64,000 nt of DNA, taken from Thermoplasmata archaeon (GTDB lineage: Archaea > Thermoplasmatota > Thermoplasmata > Methanomassiliicoccales > Methanomethylophilaceae). The stretch covers positions 42,791 through 106,790 of the forward strand of contig SUTA01000001.1 in the NCBI GenBank assembly GCA_015063135.1. The letters are read 5' to 3'. Numbering within the stretch: position 1 is the stretch's first letter; each line of letters begins with the position of its first letter. Shown here piece after piece: positions 2,974-52,001 of this stretch. The translations under genes and the position numbers were made by a program. The notes beneath the pieces were generated by a model that did no database searches, had not been told where the DNA came from, and worked only from the letters and a program-made list of their open reading frames with translations.

Positions 2974-4760
2974 CGACCACAGCAAGCAGCTCGGAGGCCC
3001 TTCAGCAGGTCATGGCGAGGAACCGCGAGTCGGTGGACATGGCAGCGATAATGCTGTGCGCCGCCCTGGCGGCGATAATCCTGGTGCTCTATATACTCAC
3101 CAGGCTGAACTACTTCACGGGCCTGGACAAGAGCATAGGCATCTACATGATGGCCGACGAGCTGCTGCTCCTGTCCGCCGTGGTCATAGGCGCCCTTGAC
3201 AAGCGGCACAAGACCCCGATACGGCTGTTCATCATAGCCGCCCTGATGGTCACCGCGCTGATCATCAGCACAGTCCTGTCGTTCCCCTACCTGATGTTCG
3301 CCCTGCCGATAGTTCTGGTCACGGCGTACTACGACGGCAGGTTCACCCTGGCGATCGCCGTCATAGGGGCCGCCCTGATGTGCATCGAGCCGTTCTTCTC
3401 GTCCTACATCGGGATAACCCACATGCAGTACGTGGACTTCAAGACCTACACGGACGGCAGCATAATCATCACCAGCGACAGCATGACCGAGGCCGCCAGG
3501 GAGTTCGCCAGGTTCACGGTCCCGTCGCTGCCGATCTACGCCGCCATGGTCGGGCTGTCCGTATGGGTCACCGACAGGGGGCTCAAGCTCATGAAGGAGC
3601 GCTCCGCCCTGGCCGAGACGCAGATCGCCCTGGAGAACGAGCTCTCCATCGCCGCCGGGATCCAGCAGGGGATGCTCCCCGAGGACTTCCCCGACGAGGA
3701 ATCCTATGCCATCACGGCCACAATGGTCCCCGCCAAGGATGTCGGTGGGGACTTCTACGATTTCATCAAGATAGGCAGCTCGCGCGTGGCGTTCCTGGTG
3801 GCGGACGTGTCCGGCAAGGGGATGCCAGCCGCCCTGTTCATGGCCAGCGCCAGGACCCTCGTGCGCAGCAACCTGGAGAACGGCCTCCAGGTGGATGTGG
3901 TGATGGACCGCACCAACGCGGAGCTCATCAAGTCCAACAAGGAGAAGCTGTTCGTCACCGCCTGGCTGGGCATGCTGGACCTGAAGACCGGAGCGCTGTC
4001 CTACGTGAACGCGGGCCACAACCCGCCGTTCCTGATCCGCGCCGACGGCTCCGTCGAATCCGTCAGATCCAGGCCGAACTTCGTGCTTGGCAGGAAGAAG
4101 GGCCTTAGGTACATGGAGCACAGGATGCAGCTGTCCCCCGGCGACAGGCTCCTCCTGTACACCGACGGCCTGACCGATGCCACGAACCCCGAGGGCGAGA
4201 TGTTCACCGTCGAGCGGGTGGAGGAGAGGCTCAGGTCGGGCTGCGTGTCCGTGGACTCCATGATGGACGAGGTCAGGGCGTTCTCCGGGGGCGCCGACCA
4301 GTTCGACGACCTCACCATGCTCCTGGTGGAGTACAGGGAGCCCAAGACGATAGCGTACTCCGAGGGGGAGGTCTTCGATGCCGACCCGGCCGGCCACGAT
4401 GCGGCTATCGCGTACATACGCTCGAGGCTAGAGGAGGCCGGCTGCTCGGAGAAGGTCATCAGGGACATGGAGGTCTCCTCGTCCGAGGTGATCTCGAACA
4501 TCAACATGTACGCCTACCCGGACGGAGGTGGCACAGTCAGGGTGTCCGCCGATGTGGTGGAGCGCATAGCGACCGTCATCTTCAGGGACACCGGCCCGGA
4601 GTACAACCCGCTGGAGAGGTCCAACCCCGATGCCGAGAAGAGGATCAGGGAGCACAAGATCGGCGGTTTCGGCATATTCATAGTCAAGAAGCTGATGGAC
4701 GACGTGCGGTACGAGAGGACCGACGGCATGAACGTCCTGACCATAATGAAGGAGATGCGA
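2970..4760 (+). CDS. Membrane-bound SpoIIE/RsbU PP2C phosphatase fused to an RsbW-like HATPase anti-sigma domain
   Basis: N-terminal TM helices. PP2C motifs VGGDFYD, ADVSGKG, NAGHNPP, LYTDG, DDLT. C-terminal NINMYAY...DTG...GGFGIFIV. Ends CGA(4758-4760)-TAG. Confidence 0.85.
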
Positions 4761-4764
4761 TAGG

Positions 4765-5061
4765 ATGCAGATAGACGTGAGGAAGGATGGAAGCAAGCTG
4801 ATAATCGCCCCGAAGGGCAACATAGACTACGTCACGGCCCCGGAGCTGGACGCAGAGGTCTCCAAGGCCGGGGATGACGTCAGGTCGATCGAGATCGACA
4901 TGTCCGGCGTCCCGTACATATCGTCCGCCGGGCTCAGGGTGATCCTGAACGCCGACGAGATGATGCAGGACAGGGACGGGATCAAGCTCACCGGCGTCAA
5001 CAACGACGTGAGGGCCATCCTGGAGATGACCGGCTTCTACGACATGCTGGACATAGAGCGA
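4765..5061 (+). CDS. STAS-domain anti-sigma factor antagonist (RsbV/SpoIIAA-like)
   Basis: GNIDYVTAP, IDMSGVPYISSAGLR, ILEMTGF. CGA at 5059-5061 overlaps the next ATG (CGATG). Confidence 0.85.
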
Positions 5062-5708
5062 TGCGCTGCTTCCTGACCGACTGCTCCCCCCTTGAGGACC
5101 CCGACCTGTACGCCAGGGCGTACGCCCGCCTGCCGGCCTGGAGGAGGGAGAGGGCGGACTTCTACAGGTTCCCGAGGGACCGCTTCCTTAGCATCGCGGC
5201 CGGGCTGTACATGGGCCTGGTCGAGCGCGGCCATGGGGCCGTCTCCATAGGCAATGACGGCAAGCCCCGCGCCGACGGCCTGGAGTTCAACGCCTCCCAT
5301 TCCGGGTGCTACGTCGCATTCGCCTGCTCCGAGCACGCGGTGGGCGTGGACATAGAGGAAGTGGGCAGCAACATGGACATCGCCGAGAGGGTAACCACGC
5401 CTGACGAGTACATAGACCTCATGGAATGCGGGGATCTCCGCGCGAGGGAGGACCTGTTCTGCAGGATGTGGACGGCCAAGGAGAGCTACATGAAGGCCCT
5501 GGGGAAGGGCATGGGCCTGCCCCCGGAGACGTTCAGGGTCCTCCATGGCAGGGAGATATCCTCCCCCTCGGAGGACTTCGCCATAACGGAGCTCTCGCCG
5601 CCCCGCGGTTACCACGTATCGGTATGCTGCGAGGAGGAGTGCTGCATCCTCGAAGACATCGGGATCGAGCGCCTCCTGGAGGCTGAGAGGATCGAGGACC
5701 TCTTCCGA
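5061..5708 (+). CDS. Sfp-type 4'-phosphopantetheinyl transferase
   Basis: GKP, FNASHSG, VGVDIE, WTAKESYMKALG motifs. Ends at CGA 5706-5708, abutting the convergent gene. Confidence 0.85.
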
Positions 5709-6494
5709 TCGCCCGTGTATCGGCCTGAAACCGCGTTCCGATAAATGCTTCCTGAGCTCAGCCTCGGCCTTCCCGGAGGGGGCGAGCCCCATCCTGCCGA
5801 GCCTGGCCTCGTCGCCCTGCCTGGCATTCAGGGACCCCATGAGGTAATGCCTGGCGCCGGTGGTTGCTATCGCCTCCACAAGCTCCCCCTCCCTCCCCTC
5901 CAGCGAGTTCATGACAGGGGCGATCATGGCGTAGGTGTCAATCCCGGCATCCACCAGGCGGCGCATGGCATCCAGCCTCGCCGATGGCAGGGGCGCACCG
6001 GGCTCGGCCATCTTGGATATCCTCTCGTCCAGGCCGGTTATCGTGATGCCCACGGAGCACTCCATGCTCGCCAGGAGCGGGATGTCCCTGATGACTAGGT
6101 CTGACTTGGTGACTATGGCGGCCTCCCTCCCTTGGGAGGCCAGGACCTCCAGGCACTGCCTGGTCAGCAGGAACCTGGACTCTGCATATTGGTAGGGGTC
6201 CGTTGAGGAGCCGATGCCGATCGTGCCCTCCGTGCCGGGGAGCTCCCTGGCCAGCCTGTCCACGATGTTGGTGCGGACCCTGACGACCCTCCATGTGGAG
6301 GGGTCGGAATGGGTGTAGCCGGGCGCGTAGCAGTAGACGCACCCGTGGGCGCATCCGCCGTAGGGGTTGAGGGTGTACTTCAGGCCGGGGATGTTGGTGG
6401 GCGACAGCGCCCTCCTGCACTCCACGAGCTCGAAGTCGCCGTCCCATTCCTCCGCCTCGTCCGAGTAGTCGGAGAGACGGGTGCCGATGGCCAT
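5709..6494 (-). CDS. Radical SAM protein, SPL/DNA-repair photolyase-like family
   Basis: LNPYGGCAHGCVYCYA (CxxxCxxC), TDPYQ, TKS. Ends at CGA; the supplied 485-aa ORF reads on antisense through the PPTase. Confidence 0.8.
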
Positions 6495-6495
6495 C

Positions 6496-7416: not shown

Positions 7417-8703
7417 TCGGTAAAAGTCTTCGATGCGCTTCTGCACCTTCCAGTCCTTCAGGATGGCCGAATGCGAGAACCAGGTCTCCCTGCGGACGTC
7501 CATGTAGGACTCGATGTGGGGCCACAGCTGCTCCAGGGACTCCCCGGCGATGGGCGGGTGCCTAAGGGCCTCCCTGACGTTCTCCCTGATGTTCCACACG
7601 CCCAGCGGGATGTCGTAGCCTGGATGGATCTCCCTCAGGACTATCACCGCCGCGCTCCTGCCCTGGGCGTTCAGCATCTCCGTGACCGCGAGCCTCGCGG
7701 CGTAATAGGCCCCCTCGTTGGCGGCGTAATGGGTCATGCCGTCGAAGGGCTCGTGGTCCGCCGCGAAGTCGATCCTGGACGCGCTGGGGTTCCAGCTGGA
7801 CTGCGGGAACCATGCCTCGATCATCTCGTAGCGCCAGGTCGTGGGCATCATCACGATGCACCACCTGTTGTCCAGCCCGGTCCAGGTGTACAGCCTGTAC
7901 TCGTCTATCGTCGGGTTGAACCTGACCTCCTTGGACAGGCTCTTGCTGATCATGTCGTCCACGGCGGTGATGCTCCATCTGGTCGGGACGAACCTGCGGT
8001 TCCTCCCCACGCCCATGGTGCCCACCGAGAAGGCCTTCTGGATCTCCGACACGGCAGTCCCGTTGCCGTATGCGGCCATGACCGCGTCCGCGGACCTCAT
8101 GTCCACGTCGTAGAAGCTCTTCTCCAGGTTCCTCTCGAACCTGCCGTTCCCGATGGTCATCTGCTCTATCTTCCCGGACGGGCCGAAGGGCTGCACGGCG
8201 TCGTCCAGCACCAGCCTCCCGGTGGGCTTCCTGTCGAACTGCGTTTCGACGTCTATGGACTTCTCCGTGAGGGCGATCTCCTGGACGCTGTCAACGACCC
8301 TGCCGGCCTTCCTGAAGTCCGTGGCGTCGATCCTGTACTTCCCGCGGATTAGGCCGAACCTCAGGTCCGCGATCTCGTCGACGGACCTGCCGACCCACCT
8401 CTCCGGGGAATCCATGAGGGAGGTGTCCCCGAACTCCGCCGGGAGCAGCGGGCCGATGTCCACCTTAGGGTACCCGTACCTGCCGACGAAGACGGCCGGC
8501 GGGGAGGAGCCCGCGATGTCCCTGGTGTTGATCTTCGGCATCAGCTTCTCGCGGGAGTAGAACTTGAGCATCAGGGGGCACCTGTCCCTGCCGCAGAGGT
8601 TGCGGGAGCCCTTGCAGACGTTGCACAGCCCGTTCTTCACGACGGCGTCCCCCTTGTCCATCGCATCCTGGAAAGAGAGGCTCGTCTGCATGGTCCACCC
8701 CAT
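7417..8703 (-). CDS. nreA: Nre-family archaeal DNA repair protein
   Basis: CNVCKGSRNLCGRDRCP, GSSPPAVFVGRYGYPKV, PTRWSITAVD, PLGVWNIRE. C-terminal PIP-box-like QKRIEDFY followed directly by CGA. Confidence 0.85.
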
Positions 8704-11455: not shown

Positions 11456-11468
11456 TCGCTTTCAAACC

Positions 11469-11552: not shown

Positions 11553-12227
11553 GTGGATAGCAAAATCATTCTGATAGTGATCGTCGCAGCCCTAGTCGCC
11601 GTTGGAGCGGTGGCCGTCGTGACCCTGAGCTCCGGATCCAACGACACCCCGCCATCATCCGATATGGTGCGCTATGAGGGCAACGGCGGAGCCACGGACG
11701 ACGGGATAACCCATTACGACACGAAGATGACGAACGTGCAGAAGAGCCTCTTCAAGAAGGAGGATTACCACTTCAAGGAGTGGAACACCAAGGCCAACGG
11801 CAGCGGTACTGCATACCAACCCGGCCAGACCGTGTCCCTGGGAACCGTCCTGTACGCCCAATGGTCCGATGCGAATTCCGTGGATGCTGTGAACTTGTAC
11901 ACCAGCGTATTCCACCTCTTCATCGGCCAGAAGGGCAGCTCGGATCTGGTGAACATAGATGACGGCAGCGCAGACCTCCCTGCGAGCAGCGCCATCCTGG
12001 TGGTCAGCCCCGTCGACAAGGAGGCACAGATCACCGTCGCCGATAACCTGCAGATAACCATCGTCTCCGGCACGAAGACCTACAAGGTCGACCTCGGCCT
12101 CCCCGCAAGCGGCCTGTCGTTCACGGGCGGCGACGTGCTGAGCAGCGGCATCGCGGCATACCTGGACATAGGCCAGAGCGGGAAGAACGCCATCGCCACC
12201 GTATCGATATCCGTGATCCAGCACCGA
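11553..12227 (+). CDS. Membrane-anchored protein with one InlB B-repeat (Listeria-Bacteroides repeat)
   Basis: N-terminal TM helix; YEGNGG...FKEWNTKANGSG...LYAQW. CGA at 12225-12227. Confidence 0.7.
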
Positions 12228-12504: not shown

Positions 12505-13299
12505 TCGGTGCCTCTTCCCGGGCTTGCCGGGCTTGTAGGCCTTGAGGTACTTCAGGACCTCCTGATCCGTGGGGGAGTCGGTCCATTCGGGCGTGTACCC
12601 GCCCTTGATGTACTCGTTGTACCACTCCTCGCACAGCCTCATGGGCTCCCGCATGTCCATCTTATCCATGACGATGATGGCTGTGTTCTCCGGGGTCGGA
12701 ACCCAGAACTTGGGGCGGTCGTAGTCCTCGTCCTCCAGGAACCCGACCAGGAAGACTATCCTGTCGAGCTTGGAGAGCTCCGCGTAGAGGGAGGCCTGCA
12801 GAATGTAGGACTCGGGGACGACGGTGACGTTGCCGTCCGCATCGAGCCATTTGCTGCGGTCGTGTGAGGTCTTGATCTCAAGTATCGTGTCCCTCTTCCC
12901 GTCGACCTGGATGTAGCCATCCACCAGGCCGCCGAAGACCTTGTTGTCATGGAAGTGGTCGTAACCGCAGAGCTCCTTCTCCACGGGCTCCTCAACGCCC
13001 ACCTTCACGCCCTCTCCGAGCCCCATGGGGCCCTGCAGGAGCTGGACCACGTTCTTCGCCAGGTAGTTCCTCAGGATGGGCTCGATGATGTTGCCCGCCT
13101 CGAGATACTTGTTCGACTTGTCGCCGGGATACAGTCCCGCGATCTCGCAGGCGATCTTGAACGGGGAGGAGAAGTCGCTCTTCCCCAGGATGGGGCCCAT
13201 GCGGGTCCCGGTGATCTTCTTGAACCTGTAGACATCGAAGACGACAGTGCGTTCGTCCTCGTCTATGTCGACTATGCTAGCCCTTCCGTCGAACGCCAT
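12505..13299 (-). CDS. YqaJ/lambda-exonuclease-like PD-(D/E)XK nuclease
   Basis: KKITGTRMGPILG, GNIIEP, GGLVDG, ILEIKT, YILQASLY. ATG at 13299; ends PGKRH-CGA. Confidence 0.7.
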
Positions 13300-13332: not shown

Positions 13333-13659
13333 TCGGTCCCCGCATAGCCAATCCATCACGTTGACTACTTCTATCCCCTCATATGAACCGAGCCCGAAAC
13401 TGTCGGTCGTCAGGATCACCTTGCGATAGTTGTCGGAAATCCTACTGAGCGGCCTTAACTCCCTGGCCCTTGTCTCCTCTGCGAGCATGGTCTGGGTTAC
13501 CTGATAGTATATGGTTTCGTCCGCCTTCTTTGCGGTGAAATCTATTTCCGAATCCTTGTAGCTTCCAACCGATACCTTGTAGCCTCTCCTCAACAGCTCA
13601 AAGAAAACGGCATTTTCCAAGGGCCTGCTCAAATCGGCGAGATCACCGGGATTTAACAA
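13333..13659 (-). pseudogene. C-terminal fragment of an AAA+ ATPase/DUF4143 protein
   Basis: LENAVFFELLRRGY, EIDF, YYQV, RELRPL, DNY, DWL are the typical C-terminus. The N-terminal ATPase is missing and GC is lower. Ends at CGA. Confidence 0.7.
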
Positions 13660-15999: not shown

Positions 16000-16713
16000 T
16001 CGCAATCCCAATTTCTCCAGCAGCTCCTTCCTCTCGCCATCGGTGAGGTCGCGGTACCTCCCCGTCGACAGGTCGCCGAGCTCGATGTTCATCACCCTAA
16101 CGCGGACCAGCCTCTTCACCTTCATGTCGAAGGACTCGCACATGCGGCGGATCTGGCGGTTGAGGCCCTGCCTCAGGACGATCCTGAACGTGCGGTCGTC
16201 CACCTTCGAGACCTCGCACTTCTTGGTGACCCTTACCTCCCCGTCGGCCATGACGATGGGCACGCCCTTGGACATGGCCTTCAGGAACTCGTCGGTGACG
16301 TCCCTGTCCACGGTCACCACGTACTCCTTCTCGTGCTCCCCCTTGGAGCGCATGACCCTGTTGGCCAGCTCGCCGTTGTTCGTCAGCAGGATCAGCCCCT
16401 CGGAGTCCTTGTCCAGCCTCCCCACGGTGTGCACCCTCGTCGGGTACCTGAGGTAATCCACGATGTTCGTGGGGTCGGAGCGGTCCTCGGTGCAGGTGAT
16501 GCCGCGGGGCTTGTTGAACGCCAGCAGGATGTCCTTCTCCGGGGGCCTGACGGGCTTGCCGTCGACCTCCACGGTATCGCCGTCCGAGACCTTGTCCCCC
16601 AGGACGGCGACCCTGCCGTTGATCCTCACGCGGCCCTCCTCCACGAGCCTGTCGGCCCCGCGCCTGGAGGAGGCACCGCACTCGCTGAGGTACTTGTTGA
16701 GGCGGGCCTCCAT
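16000..16713 (-). CDS. S4-domain rRNA pseudouridine synthase (RsuA/RluF family)
   Basis: RLNKYLSECG.SRR.AD, NKPRG, VGRLDKDSEGL, GLNRQIRRM. Ends LGL-CGA. Confidence 0.85.
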
Positions 16714-17399
16714 CGGTTCTCCCCGATGGTCTCCTCGGCGCTCTGGATGCACCTGGTGAGGACGGTGTACGCGTTGATCATATCCGATTCGCCCACGATG
16801 AATATCGTGTCGGTGTGACAGCTGACGGTCTCCTCGATGTTGATGCCAGCATCGGAGAGGTTGGTGATCAGGTAGGCGATGACACCGCTGGTGTCCACGA
16901 TCATCTCGGGGGACTTGACGGCGATCTCCACGAGGTTCTCCCTCACCTTGATCAGGTTGAACCTGCCGACGGTGTCGATGATCCTGTCCTTGAGCATGCG
17001 GTCGGCGATGATGGTGACCGCGGATGCGGATTGGACGCACTGCATGATGGAGTTCTCGTTCCAGAGGTCCTTGAAAAGGTTGTCCATCTTATGGAGCACC
17101 GACCAATCGTTCTTGGCGGTGACGATGCAGGTCTTGGTGCGCATCTCCAGCCTGCTGTCCTTGAGAATCCTGAGGATGTTCATCTCGTGCTCGGAAGTTG
17201 TCCCGAGCTTGGAGGCGTAGCGCCTGCACGCTATCATAACGGCCTCCTCGTTGGTGAGACCCATGTCCTTCATTATCAATCTGGACAGGGAAGAGTAGTT
17301 GATGAGCCCCTTGGACACGCAGTCCTTGATGCTCGGATGGGAATCTATGTAGAGCCTGGTCTTCTCGGCGAGGCTCTCCTTCGGCGCGCTGTTGGACAT
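16713..17399 (-). CDS. Archaeal ACT-domain regulatory protein
   Basis: LINYSSLSR N-terminus; C-terminal ACT-like GVIAYLITNLSDAGINI. Its CGA overlaps the next ATG (CGATG). Confidence 0.7.
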
Positions 17400-17531: not shown

Positions 17532-18704
17532 TCGGAGGCACTCCTTGAGGAGCGCCGTGAAGCGGTCCTTCTGCCCGTCGTTCAGGATGAGCGGCGGGAT
17601 GAGGCGGACGGTGTTGCCGTGGCACACGTTGACCAGCACTCCGTTGTCGCGGCAGTGCTTCTGCACTGCGATGGCGGCCTCGTTGGACTCCATCTCTATG
17701 CCGATGATCAGGCCCAAGCCGCGGACTTCCTTCACCTTGGGACTCTGGATGGCCTTCAGGTCCTTCATCCAACGGGCGCCCAGGTCGCGGGAGTTCTCCA
17801 CGAGCTTGTCCTTCTTCATGATGTCCAGGACGGCGCATCCGGAGGCGGTCACCAGAGGGTTCCCGCCGAACGTGGTCCCGTGGGACCCGGGGGTCATGAC
17901 CTTGGAGATCTCCTCGGTGGACGTCACGGCGCCGATGGGGGCGCCGCCTCCCAGGGCCTTCGCCATGGTGATTATGTCGGGGACGACACCGTAATTCTGG
18001 ATCCCGTACCACTGCCCGGTGCGGCCGATCCCGGTCTGCACCTCGTCCACGATCATCAGCGCGCCCTTGTCATCGCACTCGTCGCGGATGGTCTTGAAGA
18101 ACTCCTTCTGCGCGGTGCGGACGCCGCCCTCGGCCTGGATGGGCTCGACTATGACGGCCGCCACGTCCTTGGAGATCATGCCCTTGACGGACTCGGGGTC
18201 CCCGAACCCGTAGTACTCGAAGGCCTGGCTGATCAGAGCCTCGAAGGTGTCCTGGTACTTCTTCTGGCCGGTGGCGCCCAGGGCGGCCGCCGTGCGGCCG
18301 TGGAAGCCGTTCAGGGCGGACATGACCTTCTTCCTGCCGGTGTAGCGCACCGCCAGCTTCAGCGCTCCCTCGTTGGCCTCGGCGCCGCTGTTGACGAACA
18401 GGGTGCGGTCGAGGTCCCCGGGGGTGATGGATGCGATCTTCTCGGCCAGGCGCGCCTGCTCCTCCACGTAGTAGAGGTTCGATACGTGCACCATCTTCGC
18501 GACCTGGTCCTGGACGGCCTCCACCCATCCAGGGTGGGCGTATCCCAGGGCGTTCACGGCGATTCCGGACACCAGGTCTAGGTACTCATTGCCCTCGGCG
18601 TCGTAGAGGTAGCACCCTTTTCCGTGGGTGAAGGCCAGGTCTATGCGGCCGTAGTTCTGGAACAGATACTTGGAGCTGAGCTCCTTGACTTCTTCGAATT
18701 TCAT
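17532..18704 (-). CDS. argD: Acetylornithine aminotransferase
   Basis: NSGAEANE, FHGRT, DEVQTGIGRTG, MAKALGGG, HGTTFGGNP, RLIPPL. 390 aa if ended at CGA. Confidence 0.9.
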
Positions 18705-31576: not shown

Positions 31577-31873
31577 TCGGTTGCGACCCGACAGCTCGAC
31601 GCAGATGGCATCGACCGCCTCCTCGAGCCTCTGCGGGTCGTAGGGCTCCGGGAAGAGGATCATCTCCCCTCCGCCGTCGTACGGGAATGCCGATGGGCAA
31701 TCCCTGAGCATCCTGGCGGAGGCCTTGGTGATCTTCAGGAGCAGCCTGTCGTCGTAAATCCCGCCGAAGAGGATGCCATCCCTGTATAGCAGGTACTCCC
31801 CCATCATCTTGCGGGACTTTATCCCCGGCAGGGCGGCCTCGACGGCCTCCAGGGTGCTGGCGCTGGACGGCAT
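31577..31873 (-). CDS. TfoX N-terminal domain protein
   Basis: RKMMGEYLLY.DG.FGGIYDDRLLLK, PYDG. Ends at CGA. Confidence 0.75.
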
Positions 31874-31994: not shown

Positions 31995-33515
31995 ATGAAG
32001 GCCCGTGACATCGTGATCGCAGCCGCTCTGGTCGTGGCCATCGTGATCGCAGCGTCCTTCGCCACCATGCACGGCGGGCATGACCGGGACGGGTTCGTGA
32101 TCATACACACGAACGACACCCACTGCTACTACGGGGATGACGGCAACCTCGGATTCTCCACCGTAGCCTCGCTCAAGGACCAGATGGAGTCCGACGGAAA
32201 GGCCGTTTTCCTGGTGGATGCGGGGGATTTCCTCCAGGGCAACGTCTACGGCGCCCTGAGCAAGGGAGAGTACTCGGTCGATGTCATGAACATGGTCGGA
32301 TACGACCTCGGCATCCCGGGCAACCACGATTTCGACTTCACGGCCGACGTGATGCTCGAGAGGGCCAACGCCTTGGACTACCCCCTGATTTGCGCCAACC
32401 TGGCCTACAGGTCTACGGGCGAGAGCGTTTTCCATGAGTACATGATCCTCGAGAAGGGCGGGTACAGGCTCGGATGCTTCGGCCTCCTCACCCCTGACAC
32501 CGAGGCCCAGGTCATGAGGGGGTACATGGGTGACATGACCGTCACGGACCCCGTCGCGGCGGCCGAGCGCATGGTCGACACGCTGCAGCACAGCGACGTC
32601 GACTACGTCGTGGCCATCGGGCACTTGGGTGTGGACAGGAGCGCCACCATAACCTCCGACGAGCTTTGCAGCAAGGTAGACGGGATAGACATCTTCATCG
32701 ACGGCCACAGCCACACCGAGATGGAGGACGGGAAGGTTTGCGACGGCAGCGTCCAGCTGATCCCCAGCGACACGGTTATAGCGAGCACCGGATGCTTCAA
32801 CAAGACCGTGGGGATCGTCAAGGTGTCCGATAAGGGCGGCATCTCCGCCAAGCTCCACCGCGACGAGGCATACCACGACCCCGGGATCGTCGGAGAGGTC
32901 GAGAGGATCCACGAGGAGGTGGACGGCGAGCTGTCCCATGTCATCGGGTCCACCAAGATCTACCTGGACGGGGAGCGCGGGAGCGTGCGCGTGCATGAGA
33001 CCAACCTCGGGGACCTGACGACCGACGTCATGCGCCATCTGGGCGATGCCGATGTTGCCTTGATCAGCGGAGGGTCGATCCGCACCAGCATCCCGCCCGG
33101 CGAGATCATCAGGCACCAGGTTCTCGATGTCAATCCGTTCTTCAACAGCCTGTGGATGCTTGAGATCACCGGGAAGACCCTGAAGGAAGTCCTGGAGTTC
33201 TCGTACTCCCATCACGGCGAGGTCTTCGGCGGTTTCATGCAGGTGTCCGGCATCGAGCTGAAGTTCGATCCGACGAAAGACGTGGGATCGCGCATAGTGT
33301 CCCTCCAGAAGGACGGCAAGGATATCGGCGACGACGACAAGCTGACGCTCGTGCTGACGGACTACCTTGCGCAGGGCGGCGACGGCTACACGATGTTTAA
33401 GGACATCCCGTACGAGGTCATCGGGGACCTCTCCAACGCCGTGATGAAGTACTTCGAGGACATCGGACCGATAACCGAGTCGACGATAAAGATGGGTCGG
33501 CAGACGCAGGCGCGA
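31995..33515 (+). CDS. Secreted 5'-nucleotidase / UDP-sugar hydrolase family metallophosphoesterase
   Basis: Signal peptide; HTNDTH, DAGD, GNHDFD, DGHSH, ETNLGDL, GGDGY. Ends GRQTQA-CGA. Confidence 0.85.
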
Positions 33516-33565: not shown

Positions 33566-34225
33566 TCGCATCTTCTTGAAGCCGCGGAACATCCACTCGA
33601 AGATGCTCTTGAAGCCGTACTTCAGCGTTCTCAGCACCCCGCGGTCTCCGCTCACGACCTCACGGGGGGCGTCGGACATGATGAATGCTACTGCTTCCTG
33701 CCACGTAGAGATGGTATCGGGCATGACGATGTAGCTGTCCCCTATCCTCGGCGGGGCGTGGGCATCGCTGCCGGCGGTGATCGGCTTCCCTATCTGCTTC
33801 GCCAGCTTCATCGACCTGCGGTTGTCCCTCTTGACGGACCTGCCGTTCTTGCCCTCGGTCCCGTCGAAATCGTAGGCGAGGGTGTTCTTCTCGCCGAGGC
33901 CGGACCACCAGCGATACGGGTGGGCGGCTATGGCGTAGCCGCCGGCCTCGTGGATCCTGTCTATGGTCTCCTGGATGGAGAGCCCGCGGGGGATCTGCCT
34001 GTCGATGCCCAGGGCCACGATGTGCCCCTCCTTCGACGAGACCTCCTCCGCCGGGATGATTATGACCTGCGGATTGTCCTTCAGCTGCTCGTAGGCCAGG
34101 AACTCGTTGTGGTCGGTGACGGCTATGCAGCCTATGCCCTTGGCCACGGCGGTCTCCACCAGCTGTTCCATGGTGGTCTTCCCGTCCTTCGAGAAGCATG
34201 TGTGGACGTGCAGATCGGCCTTCAT
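33566..34225 (-). CDS. PHP-domain metal-dependent hydrolase
   Basis: DLHVHT, VTDHN, AHPY, GSDAH. Ends RGFKKM-CGA. Confidence 0.85.
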
Positions 34226-42034: not shown

Positions 42035-43303
42035 ATGACAGTAATCGACTCCGTCCCGAAGGACGCTAGGAGCATCAAGGGCGACGTGGACCCCGACTGC
42101 GGGCAGGTCACCCGCGACCTCATGGCCGATCAGGCCCAGACGATCCTATACGAGTCCCTCAACGGCGGGAAGGCCGTGGGCAACAGGTTCTCCACCCGCG
42201 CCAAGATCGCGTCCGCCCTGGGCATCCCCGCGGACGGCATCGTCAACCACCTGCTCCAGGCCGTCGACAGGCCCCAGCCCTGCGAGGTCACCGGATCCCC
42301 CGCGTTCAAAGCCAGATGCATTCCGGTCGACCTCATGAAGCTGCCCATCCCCACCTACTTCCCTGAGGACGGCGGCAGGTACATCACTTCCGGGATCGTC
42401 GTCGCGGAATACGGCGGCAAAAGGAACGTTTCCTTCCACAGGATGATGATCATGGACTCCGGGTCCATCGCCATCAGGCTGGTCCCCAGGCACCTGTTCA
42501 CGCTGTACAACAACGCCAAGAAGGACGGCAAGGAACTGAACATCTCCATCTGCATCGGAGCCTGCGCCGAAGCCCTGCTCGCAGCCGCCACATCCATGGA
42601 CTTCGGGGCCGACGAGCTTGAGGTTGCCTCAGCCATGTGCGTCAAGGGCCACGGGAAGCCCCTGCAGGTCGGCAGGTGCGACAACGGGCTGCTCGTCCCG
42701 GCGGACACCGACTACGTCCTGGAGGGCAGGATAACCCTCGAGGAGGCCAAGGAGGGGCCCTTCGTGGACATCACCGGCACCTACGACTTCGAGAGGATGC
42801 AGCCGGTCATCAAGATCGACAAGGTCTGGACCTGCGAGGACCCCGTGTTCCACCTGCTCCTCCCGGGCGGGTGGGAGCACTTCCTGCTGATGGGCCTCCC
42901 CAGGGAGCCCATGATACTCAAGACCGTCAGGCAGGCCGTGCCCAGGGTAGCCAACGTCAGGCTCACCGAGGGCGGATGCTGCTGGCTGAACGGAGTGGTC
43001 TCGATCAAGAAGAACAAGGAGGGCGACGGCGTCAACGCCATCATGGCCGCCTTCACCGGGCACCCGTCCATGAAGCAGGTCATCATCGTCGACGACGACA
43101 TCGACATCTTCGACGACAGGCAGGTCGAATGGGCCGTCGCCACCAGGATGCAGGCCGACAGGATCCTGAAGGTCCCGGGTGCCGCGGGCTCCTCCCTGGA
43201 CCCCAGCAGCCACGGCAAGACCACATGGAAGGTCGGCTTCGATGCCACCATCCCCCTGGACGCCGACAGGTCGCTGTACGTCAAGGCGGTCCCGAAGCCG
43301 CGA
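42035..43303 (+). CDS. UbiD-family decarboxylase (possibly anhydromevalonate phosphate decarboxylase)
   Basis: DGGRYITSG, EGPFVD, VDDDID, VEWAVATR, SSLDPS, FDAT. 422 aa when ended at CGA 43301-43303. Confidence 0.8.
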
Positions 43304-43414: not shown

Positions 43415-46400
43415 ACGGATAAGAAACTGCTAATAGCGCTGGCCTTGGCCCTGCTGACCCTACCCGCCCTCGTGGCGCTCGGGGACGCGCAGGAGTCCGA
43501 GGCCCTGCAACAGGGTAGCACCTACCGCAGCGGTGTCACCGACTACTACGTGCTCACCGACCCGGGGACCAAGAGCTACACCGATTCCACGCTCCCTTCT
43601 GCCTACATATACATAGACTGCTCCACGATCAAAGCGCGGGCTTTCGCGAACTGCACCAAGCTCGCCGATGTCATCTTCTCGCCCCAGGTGAAGACCGTCG
43701 GAGAGGAGGCCTTCAAGGGCTGCACCGGGCTGTACTCGGTGGAGGCCAAGGACGTGGAGACCATCGGGGCCTACGCCTTCGCGAACTCGACGCTCCATTA
43801 CATCGGCTTCGGCGGGAAGCTCACATCGCTGGGGGACCACGCCTTCGACGGCTGCTCCAGGCTCGGATCGTTCAGCACATGGTCCACCATGCTGACCTCC
43901 TTCGGGGACTACGTCTTCAGGGGGACCGCCCTGACGGCCATCGACCTCCGCGGGATCACATCCGTGTCCCCGACCGCGTTCTCCGGCCTGACCATCAGGG
44001 CCCAGGTCGTCGCCACGGGTCAGACTCTGTTCCTCCCGGGCATCGCGACTGTCTACATCGAGGACCGCAAGTACATCAACAGCATATACGCGAACTCGAC
44101 GGACATCTCCGTGGGCGTCAGGACGACCGGGTACCGCGCGATGGTGCAGGACCTGCAGGGCAACGACGTGAGCATCTCGGAGACCATAAACTACCCGTGG
44201 TACTCCTTCACCATACCCTACGAGGCGGAAGGCGTCTACGTCGTGTCCGCGCTCTCGTACACCATAACCTTCCCCTCGTCGATGGGCCTCGACCCAGTGG
44301 TGCTCGTCAGCGGAAACGGCAGCGTCCAGCTGCCGCATCCAGACATCGAGGGGATGTCCGGCTGGACCATAGACGGCTCCTCGACGTTCTGGAGCATCAG
44401 CGAGACCGCGATCTCCCCCAACAGGACAGTTGCCTTGAAGGCGATGGTCCCCGGCCTCGTCGAGACCTACGACCACTCCGCCCTCTCAGGGCGCACCGAC
44501 ACGTCGATGCTGCCCGTGCAGATGGCCTTCGTCCCCGGCGATAAGCTGGCAACGCTCCCAGACGTCGTCGGGTACAGGTTCGTCGGATGGGAGGTCGATG
44601 GCACGGAGTACAGCGCAGGCGACCAGATCCCGTCCTACCAGAACCATGTGGCGAAGAGCCTGTGGGCCGCCACGATAGTACGCACCGTCTCCTACCCCGC
44701 CCTGGGGCTCGAGGAGCCCGTTGAGTACGGGGCTCCTTACTACGTGACGTCCTCCGCGGCAGCGGAGGCCGACTCCCAGCGCTTCATCGGATGGTCCGCC
44801 GATGGCGGGAATACCGTGCTCAGGGCGAATGACCCGCTGAACGTCACCCGCAACGTGGTCCTCGCACCCGTGTTCGAGGAGAGGACCCCGTTCACAGTCG
44901 CCCTCGTCGACCGCGGGAGCACCGTCTCCGAGACCACCGTCTACGACGGCAGGTCCTACACCATATCAGCCGAGGACCCCCAGAAGGAATTCGGCGCATT
45001 CCGCCATTGGAATCTCGACGGCGAGGTCTACATCAGAGGGGACTCCTTCCATGTGACCGCCGACACCGTGCTCCAGGCCGTCTGGTCCGACATGCCCACA
45101 TCCACGGTCACGTACCACATCGGCAGCGGAGACGTCTCGTACACCTACCTTTCCGGCTACCCCATGACCATCTACTGCGACGTGCAGCCCGATGAGGGCA
45201 TGGTGCTCTCCGGATGGTCGCTCGAAGAGGGGTCCGGCATCGTCGCGCACGCCAACGGCAGCATGTGCTCTTTGGAATCCGACCTGGACCTGTATCCCGT
45301 CTGGGCGGTCGGAGAACGCGTCATCGTGACCTTCCACGGCACGACTGGCGGGGACGTCGCCATCCCCATGATCCCCGGGAAGGTCATGGACGTGACGCAG
45401 GCCGCACCGGCCATCGAGCACTTCCGGTTCCTCGGATGGTCGCTCTCCGATGGTGCCGCCGCGGCCGATTTCCCTATCGGCTCCGAGATCGCCGCATCCA
45501 GGGACATCGATCTGTACCCGCTGTACGTCGAGGACCCGAAGGCCACGCTGACCTACATCCTCCACGACGGCAGCGATTCCATCGTTGTCTATGCCGGAAC
45601 GACCGTCACTGTGGGGGCTGGCGGACAGCCCTCCAGGGACGGATACACGTTCTCCGGATGGAGGGATGCGGCATCATCGGAGATCCACGCCAACGGCGAA
45701 AGCATGACCGTCCTGCACGACATGATCCTCGTAGCCGAATGGGAGCTGATCCCCGACACGATAACCCTGACCTTCCACGGCACCACCGAGGGGGACGTCA
45801 CGATAGTCATGATAGCGGGAGACGTCGCCCAGATCACCCAGGCCGCACCGGCCATCGAGCACTTCCGGTTCCTCGGATGGTCTCACTCCGCCAGCGCTTC
45901 CTCCGCCGACTACACCGTCGGCTCCGAGATATCCGCATTCGGCGACATCGACCTGTATCCGCTGTACGTCGAGGACCCGAAGGCCACCCTCACCTACATC
46001 AACCAGACCGTAGGCACCTCTGCGGTCCTCTACTGCGGCACGACCGTGACCGTGGGGACCGGCAGCCAGCCCGTCAGGGACGGGTACGAGTTCGCCGGAT
46101 GGAAGGATGCGAAGTCCTCGGCCGTCTACGCTAACGGAGACAGCCTGACCGTCACGCACGACATGATCCTCGTCGCCGATTGGACCCTCATCCCCATCAC
46201 GGTCCGCCTGACCTTCCACGGCACCACCGAAGGCGACGTTTCTGTCGTGAAGGTCCTCGGCACCACTGCCGAGATCACCCAGGCGGCACCGGCCATCGAG
46301 CACTTCCGGTTCCTCGGATGGTCGCTCTCCGCCGACAGGTCATCAGCGGACTTCGCGCCCGGCTCCGAGATCACGGCATCAGGGAACGTCGACCTGTACC

Positions 46401-47919
46401 CGGTCTACATCGAGGACCCCAAGGCAACCCTGACCTACATCACGCACAGCGAGAGCTCTTCGACGACAGTCTACACGGGCAACGTCGTGACGATCGGGAC
46501 CGGCGACGAGCCCGTAAGGGACGGGTACGCTTTCGCCGGATGGAGGGATGCAGCGTCGTCAGCCGTTCACGGCGACGGCGACAGCCTGGCCGTCACGCAT
46601 GACACGATCCTTGTCGCGGAATGGACACCGATACCTACCACGGTCCTCCTGACGTTCCACGGCACGACCGAGGGCGACGTCTCAGTAGTGAAGGTCCTCG
46701 GCACCGCAACCGAGATCACTCAGACCGCGCCTGCCGTGGAGCACTTCGAGTTCCTCGGATGGTCGCTCTCCGCCGACAGGTCCTCAGCGGACTTCGCCCC
46801 CGGATCCGTGATCACGGCGTCCGGGAACGTCGACCTGTACCCGATTTACGCGGAGGACCCCAAGGCCACTGTGACCTACATCACCCACGAAGGGAGCGCT
46901 TCGACCGCCCTCTACTGCGGCACCACCGTGACCGTTGGTACCGATGACGAGCCCGTCAGGGACGGGTATGCCTTCGCAGGATGGAGGGATGCGGAGTCCT
47001 CGGCCGTCTATGGAAACGGCGACAGCCTGACCGTAGCCCATGACACCGCCCTGGTGGCCGAGTGGACCCTGATCCCCGACACGATAACCGTGACGTTCCA
47101 CGGCACGACCGAGGGGGACGTCTCCATGGTCATGGCCGCCGGGGATGTCGCGGAGGTTACCCAGACTGCGCCCGCCATCGAGCACTTCGAGTTCCTCGGA
47201 TGGTCGCTCAACGCCGACGCTGACGCGGCCGACTTCTGGCTGGGCTCCGAGATCTCCGCATTCGACGACATCGACCTCTATCCGCTCTACGAGGAGGACC
47301 CGAAGGTGACCGTCACCCACGTCACCCATCATGGGAGCACCTCGACCGCGGTCTATGCTGGAACGGCAGTGACCGTTGGGACCGGCGTAGAGCCCGCTAG
47401 GAGCGGGTACTCTTTCGCCGGATGGAGGGATGCAGCGTCGTCAGCCGTTCACGGCGACGGGACAGCCTGGCCGTCACGCATGACACGATCCTGGTCGCGG
47501 AATGGACGCCCATCCAGGCCTCGCCGCAGAGCCCTGGTGCATCCCAGCAGCAATCCGGAGCCGGCTCGGGCGGCTCCCGGCCCCAGGCATCGCCATCGGG
47601 CACGGAACCCCAGAGCACGCAGGACGAGCCCGCGACCGCCCCGGCGGAGCAGGAGGACCCCGTGGCGGATGCTCCGGAGGAGTCCCCGGTCGAGGACGAG
47701 CCCGGAACGGAAGTCCCGGAGGAGCCCGCGACGGAAGTCCCGGAGGAGCCCTCAGAGGTGCCCTTCGAGACAGATGAGCCGTCCGAGGACGCCCCCTCCG
47801 CCGATCCTTCGGAATCTGAGGGCAAGAAGAAGGGGACGTCGACCGCCCTGGCGGGGCTGGGAGCTGTGATCGCGGCCACCTGCCTCGGCCTGGGGCTGAT
47901 CTACTTCCGCAAGTCCCGA
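43415..47919 (+). CDS. Large surface/adhesin-like protein (signal peptide, BspA-type LRRs, InlB B-repeats, acidic Pro-rich stalk, C-terminal TM); frameshifted
   Basis: DKKLLIALALALL signal; AF..C..L LRRs; repeated F.GW...LYP/AEW units. 1-nt deletion at about 47460. TM plus FRKS then CGA. Start codon ambiguous. Confidence 0.75.
45329..47510 (+). repeat. Five tandem 441-bp (147-aa) coding repeats
   Basis: The AC(C/G)TTCCACGGCAC unit starts at 45329, 45770, 46211, 46652 and 47093. Confidence 0.85.
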
Positions 47920-48017
47920 GACGCGCGACAAACCCATTAGGGGGCCCTCGGGCCCCTGCCCCCCTCTGCCGGACCGTCATCCCCTTATACCGCCGTCACT
48001 TAATCACGCACGTTAAC

Positions 48018-49949
48018 ATGGCCATAACCAGACTGGGGAAGAACCACCTGAGGTGGTGCTACGAATGCAACCTGCCCATCATGGAGTCCAAGGAGTGCCC
48101 GGTTTGCGGGTCCCCCACCTCCGAGATCGTCCTCACGCCGCCGGCGGACGCCAGGCCCGGCTTCGAGCATGACATCTCTCTCATCAGGGGGATCCTGGAC
48201 CGCGACTACGGCGAGGGCACCGGAGCCCGCGTCATCCCCGACGACAGGGTGGTCCTCCTGAGCAAGGCGCCCGGCCTCGACCGCATGGACGAGGTCATCA
48301 TCGACGGCGAGGTCATCGCCACGATGCGCTACGACATAGGCTCGGGATGGAAGTTCGTGGCCAGGATGCAGGGGGCGTACCGCATCGGAGGGGACGTCTC
48401 CAAGGGATACGTCGTCTGCGACGAAGGCGCCGTGAAGTTCATCAGGGAGAGCAAGAACCTCATGGCCCCCGGCGTCAAGGAGGCCGACCCCGGGATAAAG
48501 GTCGGCGACGAGATCATCATAATCAACTCCGCGAAGGAGGTCATCGCCACCGGCCTGGCCAGGATGTCCGGGTCCGAGATGGTCGCCGCCGACAAGGGCG
48601 TGGCCGTCAAGACCAGGTGGTACAAGCCCGAGGAGTTCGTGGACCGCTCTGGGAAGCCCAACTCCTGGGAGAAGGTCGTGGAGGCGAACGCCGCGGTCAT
48701 AGAGAAGCGCATCACGGAGGCCACCGGGTTCATCAGGAACACCATCGAGAAGAACAACCTGCCCGCGATAGTCTCCTTCTCCGGCGGGAAGGACTCGCTG
48801 GCCACGCTGCTCCTCACGGTGGACGCCGGACTGAAGCTGCCCGTCCTCTTCGTGGACACCGGCCTCGAGTTCGACGAGACCGTCCAGCACGTCAGGGACG
48901 TCTGCGCCAGGCACGGCCTGCAGCTCATGGAGGAGAAGGCCCCCACGGACGCCTTCTTCGGGAACCTCGTCTACTTCGGGCCCCCGGCGAAGGACTTCAG
49001 GTGGTGCTGCAAGACCAACAAGCTCGGGCCCACCGTCGGGGCGATCACCAAGAACTTCCCCGACGGGGTGCTGTCCTTCATCGGCCAGAGGAAGTACGAG
49101 TCCGAGGCCAGGAACCAGAAGCCGAGGGTGTGGAGGAACCCCTGGACCCCCGGCCAGATAGGCGCGTCCCCCATCCAGAACTGGGCCGCCATGCACGTCT
49201 GGCTGTACATCTTCATGAGGAAGGAGCCCTACAACGTGTGGTACACCCGCGGCCTCGACAGGATCGGATGCTTCCTCTGCCCCGCGTCAGACCTCGCCGA
49301 GTTCGACGCGGTCGCCGGCGCCAGCTCCAGGTGGGGCCAGTGGGACGAGTACCTCACCAAGTACATGGAGGAGCGCGGCCTGCCCAAGGAGTGGAAGGAG
49401 TACGGCCTCTGGAGGTGGAAGAACGCCCCCGACTCCATCAGGCGGGAGGTCCAGAGGGTCTCCGGCAGGGACGTCTCCGAGCTCACGAGGCAGACCAAGA
49501 CGCCGGAGAAGGGCCCGCTGACCATCAGGAAGCAGGAGGGCTTCTCCCCGTGCACCATCGGTTACAGCGTCGAGGCCGCCCTCTCCAGGCCCATCAACCT
49601 GGAGGAGGTCAAGCCGTTCTGCCATGCCCTGGGATGGGTGGTGGACATGGACCCCGAGGGCGAGTTCGTCACCGCAGATTACATCACGATCTACCGCGAG
49701 GGCAGCATCATCTGCAAGTCCCATGTCCAGAACGACGCCGCGATGCTCATGGACCAGACCTTCCAGGTCATCGTCAGGGCGGAGCAGTGCGTCGGCTGCG
49801 GCCTCTGCGCCGCCAGATGCGAGGAGGGGGCGCTCTACATGGAGGGCGGCAAGGTCCGCATCCACGAGGACGAGTGCATATTCTGCAAGGACTGCTTCGG
49901 CCCCTGCCCATCGGTGAACTTCGTCAGGGACGAGGGTTTCGACCAACGA
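48018..49949 (+). CDS. PAPS/APS-reductase-family protein with PUA and 4Fe-4S domains
   Basis: N-terminal Zn ribbon, PUA, SFSGGKDS, WCCKTNK, RIGCFLCP, two CxxCxxCxxxC motifs. Ends GFDQ-CGA. Confidence 0.85.
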
Positions 49950-49978
49950 TTTTATCATAATGAGAGGATGCGGGAACC

Positions 49979-50629
49979 ATGATGATCGACCCCGACGACC
50001 TGGCAGCGGTCATGGAGAAGGATCCGGCCGTTGTGGATGAGGATGACGCCATTAGGTACCACGCTGGATTCCACGCGGTGTGCCTCTACAGGGAGGCCCA
50101 CAAGCTCTGGGAGGCCGGGGAGTTCGACAAGGCAAGGGAGCTCAACTTCAGGTCCATCAACCTCACCGGGTGCGACATCCACCCCGCGGCGAAGATCGGC
50201 AAGAGGTTCTTCGTCGACCACGCCATCGGCGTGGTCATCGGAGAGACCGCAGAGATCGGGGAGGACGTCTGCATCTACCAGGGCGTCACCCTGGGAGGCG
50301 TTTCCTTCAACAAGGGCAAGAGGCACCCCACCGTGGGGAACCACGTGGTCATCGGGTGCAACGCGTCCGTGCTCGGCAACATCACCATCGGCGACAACGT
50401 GCGCATCGGCGCCGGCTCCGTCGTCCTCAGCGACGTGCCCGACCACTGCACAGTTGTCGGCGTCCCCGGGAGGATCGTCAGGCGCGCCGGGATCAAGACC
50501 AGCGGGTCAGACCTGATGCACAACGACCTGCCGGACCCCGAGGAGGACCAGATCCAGGCCATGGCCAGGGAGATCGAGGAGCTCAAGGCCCAGGTGAGGG
50601 CCCTCGCAGAGGCGCTGGAGAGGAAGCGA
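49979..50629 (+). CDS. cysE: Serine O-acetyltransferase
   Basis: [39 protein letters not shown]. Ends ERK-CGA. Confidence 0.88.
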
Positions 50630-50630
50630 T

Positions 50631-51560
50631 TCGCTCCAGGCCGTCTATCTTCACTATCTGCGCGTTCTGGCGCTTCATCATGTCCTCGACCAGCTCCAGC
50701 GCCGCATCGTTGCCGGCCCTGGCCGCCTTCCCGAAGTACTCGAAGCCCTTCTCCGCGTTCTGGGCCACCCCGAGTCCCTCCAGGTACATCCTGCCGACCA
50801 TGAACAGCGCATCGCCGTCGCCGGTCTCGGCGACCTCGCTGTAGAGCTCGAACGCCTTTCCCAGGTCCTTCGCCTCGCCGACGCCCTCATAGTACATCGT
50901 CGCGAGGTTGAACTTGGCCGGCATGAACCCCTGGCTGGCCGCGGCCTCGTACCAGTGCACGGCGGTGGCCCTCCCGCCGGGGACGTCCCCCGCCAGCGCG
51001 AGGGATGCCATCTTGAACTGGGCCTCCGGGACCCCGCGGACGGCCGCCATCATGAAGAACCTTACCGCCTCGTCCTTGTCCTTCTCGCACCCGACGCCCT
51101 CCGAGCGCATGTATGCGACCTTGAACATGGACAGGGGATCGCCGGCCTCCGCGGCCATGGAATACCAGTGGAACGCCTTCTCCGGGTCCTGCGGCGTGCC
51201 GTAGCCGTACATGTAGATGCCCCCGATCTCGGGGTAGGCCTCGACCATCCCTGCCTCCGCGGCCTTCTCGAACCAGTGCTTGCACTGCTCGCGGTTCTCG
51301 ATGAACCCGTCCACGCCGGAGTACAGCATGCCGAGCCTGTACATGGACGGGGGGTGCCCGGCCATGGCCGCGGCGGTGTACAGCTGGGCGGCGCCCTCGG
51401 GGTCCTTGTCCGTGGCGGTGCCGGTCAGCTTCATCTCCGCCAGGCCGAAGAACCCGTTCGGATAGCCGGCCTCCGCGGCCTGCCTGAAGAGGTCGTACGC
51501 CCTCTCCGGATCGGTTTGGTAGCACTCGACTGCCTGGTCGCAAAGCTCGGAAGGCTCCAT
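50631..51560 (-). CDS. Sel1-like repeat protein
   Basis: Multiple A..W...AAE.G / A.F.L..MY..G.G repeats. Ends IDGLE-CGA, convergent with cysE. Confidence 0.85.
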
Positions 51561-51821
51561 GCCACGGCGATTGCGACGGTGGATGATAACCGTTCGCACG
51601 GGGATCGTCGTTTTTTCCATTGGAAGCACGGGGTTCCAGCACCGGGGCCCTGCCAGAGGGATGGTTTCGTCTCTGCAACTCGGCCGAAAGCCTGATGGCT
51701 TCTGGCTCCGGAGCCATCATCTCCAGTTCGGGGCCCGGCCCCTGCCTGCCTCCGCCGGCCCACCGCCCGCGAGGGGTCCCGCGACCGTTCCGTTTATCAT
51801 CTACCCGCGAGATTACCGTCC

Positions 51822-52001
51822 ATGGTCCAGAAACCCCTGATAACCGCCGTCGTCATCGTCGCGGCTATCCTCGTTGGGCTGTCGTTCGCGATGGTCGCCT
51901 TCCCCGACTCCATCAACGACTTCATGTACGTCTACGGAGCAGTCGGGCTGATCGCCATCTTGATCCTCGTCGTCATGCTCTTCAGGATGCGCCAAATCCG
52001 A
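51822..52001 (+). CDS. Small two-TM membrane protein
   Basis: Two hydrophobic helices, then RMRQI-CGA. Confidence 0.55.

Follow-up and report, generated by a model that had tools for sequence, protein, structure and literature searches.

CGA at gene ends in a Methanomethylophilaceae archaeon: an arginine codon likely used as a stop

A first-pass annotation of 64,000 nucleotides of archaeal DNA proposed that CGA, ordinarily an arginine codon, serves as a stop codon, and listed 26 genes that end at it. Here, we describe that whole stretch (C29:42791-106790; hereafter "the window"), the genome to which it belongs, and the relatives of its host. The host is a member of the family Methanomethylophilaceae (order Methanomassiliicoccales), represented by a 1.86-Mb metagenome assembly of 40 contigs that is 87.5% complete; the sequencing runs containing its DNA are animal gut and fecal metagenomes.

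CGA gene ends in the window and across the genome

All 26 positions hold an in-frame CGA on the strand given for them, preceded by protein-like sequence and followed by junk. With CGA permitted as a stop, a gene model self-trained on the host genome predicts 53 genes for the window. CGA ends 27 of them, including all 26 listed genes. For comparison we used G123, a complete congeneric reference genome (1,501 genes called in the first 1.6 of 1.89 Mb); 790 orthologs passed filters of ≥50% identity and ≥70% coverage. Each line below gives the position and strand of a putative CGA stop, the gene that it would end, and the support for it.

4758-4760, + strand: SpoIIE/HATPase gene 3012-4760; gene model, HATPase_c_2 profile
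5059-5061, + strand: STAS gene 4765-5061, sharing its final A with the ATG that follows (CGATG overlap); gene model, Pfam
5706-5708, + strand: ACPS-family gene 5061-5708, abutting a convergent CGA (CGATCG); gene model, Pfam, junction analysis
5709-5711, - strand: radical SAM gene 5709-6494; gene model, Pfam
7417-7419, - strand: Nre gene 7417-8661, the following standard stop lying 307 codons downstream; G123 stop in same column, Nre_C profile
12225-12227, + strand: gene 11553-12227; gene model only
12505-12507, - strand: YqaJ-like gene 12505-13299; ortholog stop ≤1 codon away, Pfam
13333-13335, - strand: 86-residue fragment 13333-13593; gene model only
16000-16002, - strand: pseudouridine synthase gene 16000-16713; ortholog column 0, unedited in RNA run X6
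16713-16715, - strand: ACT-domain gene 16713-17399, overlapping the next ATG; ortholog column 0, unedited in X6
17532-17534, - strand: aminotransferase III gene 17532-18704; ortholog stop ≤2 codons away, Pfam profile
21951-21953, - strand: DUF5131 gene 21951-22898; gene model, Pfam
27481-27483, + strand: ThiD-ThiN gene 26203-27483; ortholog column 0, ThiN profile, unedited in X6
28760-28762, - strand: radical SAM gene 28760-29353; ortholog column 0, Pfam
29392-29394, - strand: CobO gene 29392-29928; ortholog column 0, Pfam profile, unedited in X6
31137-31139, + strand: Fic gene 30099-31139; gene model, Pfam, unedited in X6
31145-31147, - strand: gene 31145-31537; gene model, unedited in X6
31577-31579, - strand: gene 31577-31873; gene model only
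33513-33515, + strand: gene 31995-33515; gene model only
33566-33568, - strand: PHP-domain gene 33566-34225; ortholog column 0, Pfam
43301-43303, + strand: UbiD gene 42035-43303, the following standard stop lying 1,523 codons downstream; ortholog stop ≤1 codon away, Pfam
47486-47488, + strand: model 43445-47488, absent from the first-pass list and weaker; gene model only
47917-47919, + strand: model 47662-47919, ending in a transmembrane (TM) segment and FRKS tail; gene model
49947-49949, + strand: PAPS-reductase/PUA/Fer4 gene 48018-49949; ortholog column 0, Pfam
50627-50629, + strand: gene 49979-50629, one base from a convergent CGA; gene model, junction analysis
50631-50633, - strand: gene 50631-51560; ortholog stop ≤1 codon away
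51999-52001, + strand: small membrane-protein gene 51822-52001; gene model only

The G123 ortholog stops within two codons of the CGA in 12 of the 26 cases (7417, 12505, 16000, 16713, 17532, 27481, 28760, 29392, 33566, 43301, 49947 and 50631); for the remaining 14, no G123 ortholog passed the filters. A Pfam scan took in 19 proteins, 18 of them from the window. The CobO profile is complete (172/172) at residue 178 of 178 before the CGA, aminotransferase III (403/403) at residue 390 of 390, Nre_C (110/110) at residue 413 of 414, and HATPase_c_2 (127/127) at residue 580 of 582, while ThiN reaches 164/165 at residue 423 of 426. For the 86-residue fragment at 13333, the CGA end is given by the gene model; its DUF4143 label found no Pfam match. 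At 43445-47919, a 1,347-residue surface-protein-like model with a CGA end is followed by the 85-residue model with the TM segment and FRKS tail; the two may be one interrupted gene.

The same distribution holds genome-wide. Among 217,790 columns aligned between the host and G123 and lying at least 10 residues from the gene end, there is a single internal CGA, in a short and doubtful open reading frame (ORF); among the 77,418 high-identity columns there is none. The other arginine codons occur 160 (CGG), 255, 376, 3,469 and 8,135 times in the same 217,790 columns. The triplet is plentiful out of frame, with 7,892 and 34,328 occurrences, so the host DNA is not depleted of it. At the stop columns of 693 orthologs, the host has TGA in 283, CGA in 149, TAA in 15 and TAG in 10. 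Across these 693 genes, counts of CGA are 0 at offsets of −15 to −10 from the homolog stop, 149 at offset 0, and 9 to 19 at +5 to +15, a pattern well outside what chance would give. Allowing a distance of three codons, 647 of the 693 genes have a stop or CGA near the ortholog stop; in 244 it is CGA, opposite TGA in 237. The pile-up at homolog stops and near-absence from gene interiors expected by the first-pass annotation are thus what is found. In total, 728 of 1,688 gene models (~43%, a count that depends on the model) end in CGA, on every large contig. As a control, adding CGA to the stop codons increased total ORF length (1,583,157 versus 1,534,206), whereas adding any of six other codons decreased it. 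A codon count on long standard-code ORFs (5.6 CGA per 1,000) was swamped by antisense ORFs and was not used. We are close to certain that CGA marks the end of translation in the host.

CGA behaves like a real but somewhat weaker stop. The coding score drops after CGA much as after TGA (−1.37 and −1.44), with no such collapse after TAG, and a standard back-up stop within five codons downstream is no more frequent after CGA (0.16) than after TGA (0.20). Stop-start overlaps take the form CGATG in 50 cases and TGATG in 24. In the most codon-adapted decile, 8 of 132 genes end in CGA, against 52 to 76 in each of deciles 1-8, and a run of ribosomal-protein genes on contig C25 has TGA ends throughout. 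The genes for aRF1, pelota and an NFACT/RqcH-like protein all end in CGA. Of 25 genes compared between strains, 5 show CGA and TGA interchanged; at one site with CGA in the host, DNA run X13 reads TGA. The base after CGA is U in 118 of 244 cases, and in 242/602 versus 255/844 for TGA once tail-to-tail CGATCG junctions are removed; this preference carries little weight because it is partly due to those junctions. A frameshift at CGA into a standard stop was considered and rejected: a −1 shift gives NCG and a +1 shift GAN, neither of which is a stop.

Genome-wide, 25 tail-to-tail gene pairs meet at CGATCG and 19 at CGA-N-TCG (in the window, at 5706-5711 and 50627-50633), and 44 of the 47 convergent pairs with a gap of 0-1 base have CGA on both strands; in G123 such junctions are of the TGATCA type. 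This symmetric switch is puzzling, since CGATCG is under-represented genome-wide. Its observed/expected ratio is 0.67, which rules out HIP1-like enrichment as the driver.

Two further codons bear on the host code. TAG ends 32 gene models, of which 24 stay coding downstream, and a tRNA-Pyl lies beside a synthetase-like gene (C18:72186-73098). TAG therefore seems to be mostly read through, in line with the pyrrolysine code of the family (Genetic Code 34), although it stands at 10 of the 693 stop columns. The host would then pair that pyrrolysine code with the CGA stop, leaving TGA, CGA and TAA to end genes. CGG lies opposite arginine in 77 of 160 columns and in 17 of 25 at high identity, compared with 73-78% and about 90% for other arginine codons, and in the columns aligned with G123 no single replacement residue stands out.

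tRNA-Arg(UCG) and release factor aRF1

Rfam gives 43 tRNA matches in the host, 42 of them distinct, and ARAGORN adds tRNA-Pro(GGG), tRNA-Tyr, tRNA-Trp and tRNA-Pyl. The usual tRNA complement is 46, and tRNA-Arg(UCG) is the only one of these not found in the 87.5% complete genome; tRNA-Arg with anticodons UCU, CCU, GCG and CCG are present. Three variants of a tRNA-Arg(UCG) query found no copy in the host genome. When 174 family genomes were searched with a pattern for this tRNA, 144 gave a match, some few of these by chance; the host gave none. In relatives, the tRNA gene sits between two genes that adjoin in the middle of a host contig (C25:95364-95732), where its site is empty. The same empty site appears in DNA runs X11 (one contig) and X13 (two abutting contigs), from two other studies. 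The proposed loss of tRNA-Arg(UCG) with retention of the CCG species thus agrees with an assembled, syntenic and empty site. We make no claim of a tRNA remnant there, as a weak local alignment had no nhmmer match. An ARAGORN "Arg(tcg)" call proved to be the antisense of tRNA-Gln(TTG), and at low threshold ARAGORN returned hundreds of false tRNAs.

Congeners have degenerate copies of this tRNA, with a 31:39 mismatch in many and C33 in one clade. In G123 (L136:6431-6502) and other congeners the mismatch is C:A or A:A, hence a 4-bp anticodon stem. Copies with C at 33 and a weakened anticodon stem (L302-L306 and L219; genomes G008, G007, G133, G126, G015 and G019) are missed by ordinary patterns. 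An apparent loss in the G008/G015 clade was wrong, as all five genomes searched hold a divergent copy. G045 and G093, considered as independent completions of the change, both retain tRNA-Arg(UCG).

The host aRF1 gene (C35:55484-56713) ends RYKVS-CGA, in the same column as the stop of 29/29 homologs. Aligned to human eRF1, from which residue numbers are taken, it has Met in place of Arg68. Residue 68 is M, L or K in 168/168 distinct family sequences, which are related by descent and not independent, whereas in other families it is R in 12/14 and Gln in 2/14. Residues 69-70 are Asn-His in 3/3 sequences of the host species (the host and two strains) versus Lys-Asn in 168/168 others. The host also has Arg at the site of the yeast L123R substitution (YRCD). 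The first-pass proposal of an aRF1 altered near the NIKS loop therefore fits the sequence, the effect on codon specificity being predicted. One locus, L236, resembles a congener in the 5′ part of aRF1 and the host species in the remainder; it looks like a chimera or recombinant and was left out of the family tally. Several records titled as bacteria (among L310-L389) carry the family aRF1, and their titles or bins look wrong.

Published work on eRF1 gives these residues a possible role. In a termination structure, the first-position U is tied to Asn61 and Lys63 (PMC4605324). In simulations of human eRF1, Arg68 braces the NIKS loop, and an R68A substitution cuts discrimination against a first-position C from ~6 to 1-2 kcal/mol (PMC5681627). 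Residue 70 of the human factor is reported to influence the reading of UGA (PMC3632111). Yeast eRF1 releases weakly at CGA, and more strongly with L123R, according to PMC7379694.

Relatives, mechanism and competing explanations

G123 retains the tRNA. Its 1,501 called genes contain 86 CGAs, of which 56 lie no more than 15 codons from the stop. CGA ends 13 of 785 orthologs, with a standard stop a median of 6 codons later, and about four internal CGAs are well aligned. Besides aRF1, three conserved genes (L053:7763-8122, L048:4423-4755, L142) have a single internal CGA, one of them a small gene that we take to encode ribosomal protein L18e; these could be further CGA-sensitive control points. 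Across 18 congeneric loci (84,169 columns, 5,247 arginines), internal CGAs number 17 and are confined to aRF1, where codon 78 accounts for 16 and codon 11 for the other; CGA ends are present in 7 of the 18. More widely, 155 of 168 family aRF1 genes contain an in-frame CGA, exactly one in 131, at positions that vary by genus; in four genes CGA is both internal and terminal. In 76 metagenomic loci, CGA encodes 94 of 1,261 conserved arginines in aRF1 versus 39 of 6,025 in neighboring genes. Frequencies of CGA ends outside the host genus come from 1-12 genes per locus. In the host species, none of the three aRF1 sequences has an internal CGA. A sister lineage, L224 (~80% nucleotide identity), retains it, so completion in the host looks recent.

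These patterns suggest that the family is in an ambiguous, self-regulating state, in which aRF1 would curb its own synthesis at a codon shared with a weak tRNA, as judged from sequence. The host species seems to have gone through to the end of this change: it lacks the tRNA, its aRF1 is free of internal CGA, and it has two private substitutions beside NIKS. The first-pass interpretation of CGA as a stop is supported, although it had missed both the family-wide ambiguity, with its in-frame CGA in aRF1, and a prior preprint on CGA as a stop (see below).

Given that CGA is absent inside genes, ends ~43% of them and has lost its tRNA, it is likely an extra stop read by an altered release factor. 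That the reader is aRF1 itself, a direct reading that we infer, is in our judgment probable; of the three mechanisms offered at first pass, an altered aRF1 is the favored one. Four steps can be envisaged: (i) the family ancestor would have lost Arg68, leaving the NIKS loop less strict for a first-position U and allowing aRF1 to compete with tRNA-Arg(UCG) at CGA; (ii) CGA would have been purged from gene interiors and kept in aRF1, where stopping early would feed back negatively on the factor's synthesis, as at the internal stop of bacterial prfB; (iii) TGA stops would have drifted to CGA by single T-to-C changes while the tRNA decayed; (iv) in the host species, with the tRNA deleted and aRF1 without internal CGA, CGA would have become a pure, somewhat weaker stop.

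Several observations weigh against this account. The NIKS motif and Lys63 are intact in host aRF1, and the predicted effect of losing Arg68 comes from simulating the human factor with Ala rather than Met at that position. In human eRF1, R68A is reported nearly to abolish activity at all three stops (PMC3632111). The two outgroup sequences with Gln68 carry 3-4 CGAs in aRF1. A relaxed first position should admit CAA and CAG too, and yet both remain sense codons (Gln in 21/23 cases for CAA and 1,707/2,033 for CAG), with 4 and 6 occurrences, respectively, at the 693 stop columns; competition from their tRNAs may keep them sense. Thirteen of the 168 family aRF1 genes lack an in-frame CGA. In outgroup families CGA is ordinary, at 35 of 342 arginines in aRF1 versus 40 of 762 in neighbors; since outgroup aRF1 also contains CGA, its presence in family aRF1 is retention against a purged background. 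A quick aRF1 tree leaves the placement of the host within its genus unresolved, so removal of CGA from its aRF1 is inferred. Finally, the host genome is 87% complete. As a separate observation, the CAA:CAG ratio is ~1:22 in the host and ~1:36 in G123, compared with ~1:9 to 1:12 for AAA:AAG and GAA:GAG, possibly reflecting avoidance of another near-stop codon.

The main rival to reading by aRF1 is that CGA is unassigned: a ribosome with an empty A site would stall there, be freed by pelota, aEF1A and ABCE1, and have its product released by peptidyl-tRNA hydrolase. The host has no tRNA able to read CGA, possesses pelota and the NFACT/RqcH-like gene, and avoids CGA in its most codon-adapted genes, as a slow exit predicts. 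However, relatives that keep the tRNA already use CGA ends, as in the G123 orthologs and congeneric loci above; together with the four aRF1 genes carrying both internal and terminal CGA, they require a factor that competes with the tRNA. Moreover, the conserved CGA lies in aRF1 and not in a rescue gene, the 50 CGATG overlaps suggest ordinary termination-reinitiation, and quality control would have to handle 43% of proteins, the rescue factors among them. Stalling and rescue, also raised at first pass, is accordingly improbable.

A tRNA-Arg(UCG) hidden in the unassembled part of the genome would make CGA either stop or arginine by competition, as in the relatives. The incompleteness of the assembly allows for this, and some congeners have a copy so divergent that two patterns missed it. 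Nevertheless, 45 of the usual 46 tRNAs were recovered along with tRNA-Pyl, the three query variants find nothing, and the tRNA site is empty in the host and in the DNA runs of two other studies. In addition, no internal CGA is left to be read, even in aRF1. We consider such residual ambiguity very unlikely.

C-to-U editing of mRNA, the remaining first-pass mechanism, would need a single change to convert CGA to UGA, and the host has two cytidine-deaminase-family genes, but relatives too have one or two. The RNA contigs of X6 match the DNA with no difference over six CGA ends (16000, 16713, 27481, 29392, 31137 and 31145), and RNA runs X12 and X19 read CGA at one further site, making seven in all; the X19 contig is shallow and stops 13 bases from the site, and a single campaign may have yielded both X6 and X12. 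Neither X12 nor X19 covers an intergenic stretch present in two DNA runs, as would be expected of true RNA. Because contigs drop minority variants, only majority editing is excluded; editing is nonetheless scarcely credible as the explanation. An assembly or base-calling artifact in which T was read as C, a natural suspicion for a metagenome assembly, is already refuted by independent assemblies: of 25 genes, 11 have their CGA ends in common with L222 and L223, at 97% and 91% identity, 16 runs contain half or more of a 7-kb test stretch, and TGA and CGA are both plentiful out of frame.

Significance and comparison with known systems

Taken as a whole, it seems fairly likely that the host is a free-living cell in which a C-initial sense codon has completed its conversion to a stop through an eRF1-type factor, with UGA, CGA and UAA as stops and UAG as pyrrolysine, and that the rest of the family is ambiguous with a self-tuning aRF1. 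If so, a chromosome would need a new translation table, and the uracil rule of eRF1/aRF1 would be breakable by natural evolution. The family forms a graded series (tRNA intact; tRNA degenerate with few CGA ends; tRNA gone and 43% of gene ends CGA). Such a series opens the "ambiguous intermediate" theory of code change to direct testing, in a family of which Methanomethylophilus alvi, for one, is in culture. In practice, annotation under table 11 gives hundreds of proteins of these common gut methanogens either a false fusion or a junk tail (median 26.5 residues; >30 in 111 of the 244 genes examined).

Our literature search, for which bioRxiv supplements and most subscription journals were outside reach, found no paper establishing a CGA stop, a sense-to-stop change in a cell's own genome, or a C-initial stop. 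A Codetta screen reported that some bacteria have changed arginine codons, whereas in archaea it saw no sense codon taken over by a different amino acid (PMC8629427); the Codetta and KACI screens cannot infer stops (bioRxiv 10.64898/2026.04.02.715157). A CGA stop has been raised as an untested possibility, with CGG-to-Trp, in two Njordarchaeales assemblies (Melnykov, bioRxiv 10.64898/2026.04.02.715157). As described there, that case is likewise archaeal, with CGA absent from domains and tRNA-UCG not found. The order is unrelated, however, and in our host CGG stays arginine (17/25 at high identity), and stop columns, intermediates and release-factor changes are documented.

Genetic Code 34, in which all TAG encode pyrrolysine (bioRxiv 10.1101/2024.09.30.615893), belongs to the same family, and in the host TAG is likewise rare as a stop and a tRNA-Pyl lies next to a synthetase-like gene. 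The host code adds a CGA stop, whereas that paper has no occurrence of CGA. Yeast eRF1/eRF3 can misdecode CGA (Wada and Ito, PMC7379694), a similar case in that an eRF1-family factor releases at CGA in competition with tRNA-Arg, enhanced by Arg123; as reported, it is a low-level error on reporters and not a genomic code. Autoregulation by an internal stop has been described for a Mimivirus class-I release factor (PMC3521657). By analogy with it, the aRF1 gene of the relatives appears to hold an in-frame signal on which its own product would terminate. Bacterial prfB is a further release-factor gene with an internal stop, and is autoregulatory. Unlike in these two systems, the signal in the relatives would be an Arg/stop codon bypassed by a tRNA rather than by frameshift or read-through of a standard stop, and it is absent in the host species.

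Close parallels are also found in organelles, where sense codons have become stops: AGA/AGG in vertebrate mitochondria, UCA/UCG in Scenedesmaceae mitochondria, UUA/UUG in Marsupiomonadales mitochondria, and UUA/UCA in peDinoflagellate plastids (PMC12574857). As in those cases, insofar as the source describes them, the codon is gone from gene interiors and found at homolog stops, and the codon-reading region of the release factor is changed. Those are organelles with bacterial-type factors; the host case concerns a cellular chromosome and ~730 of its genes, with a C-initial codon and a factor of the eRF1/aRF1 type. The type of event is known from organelles; the setting, the codon and the factor are new, and the host genome is a fully converted case.

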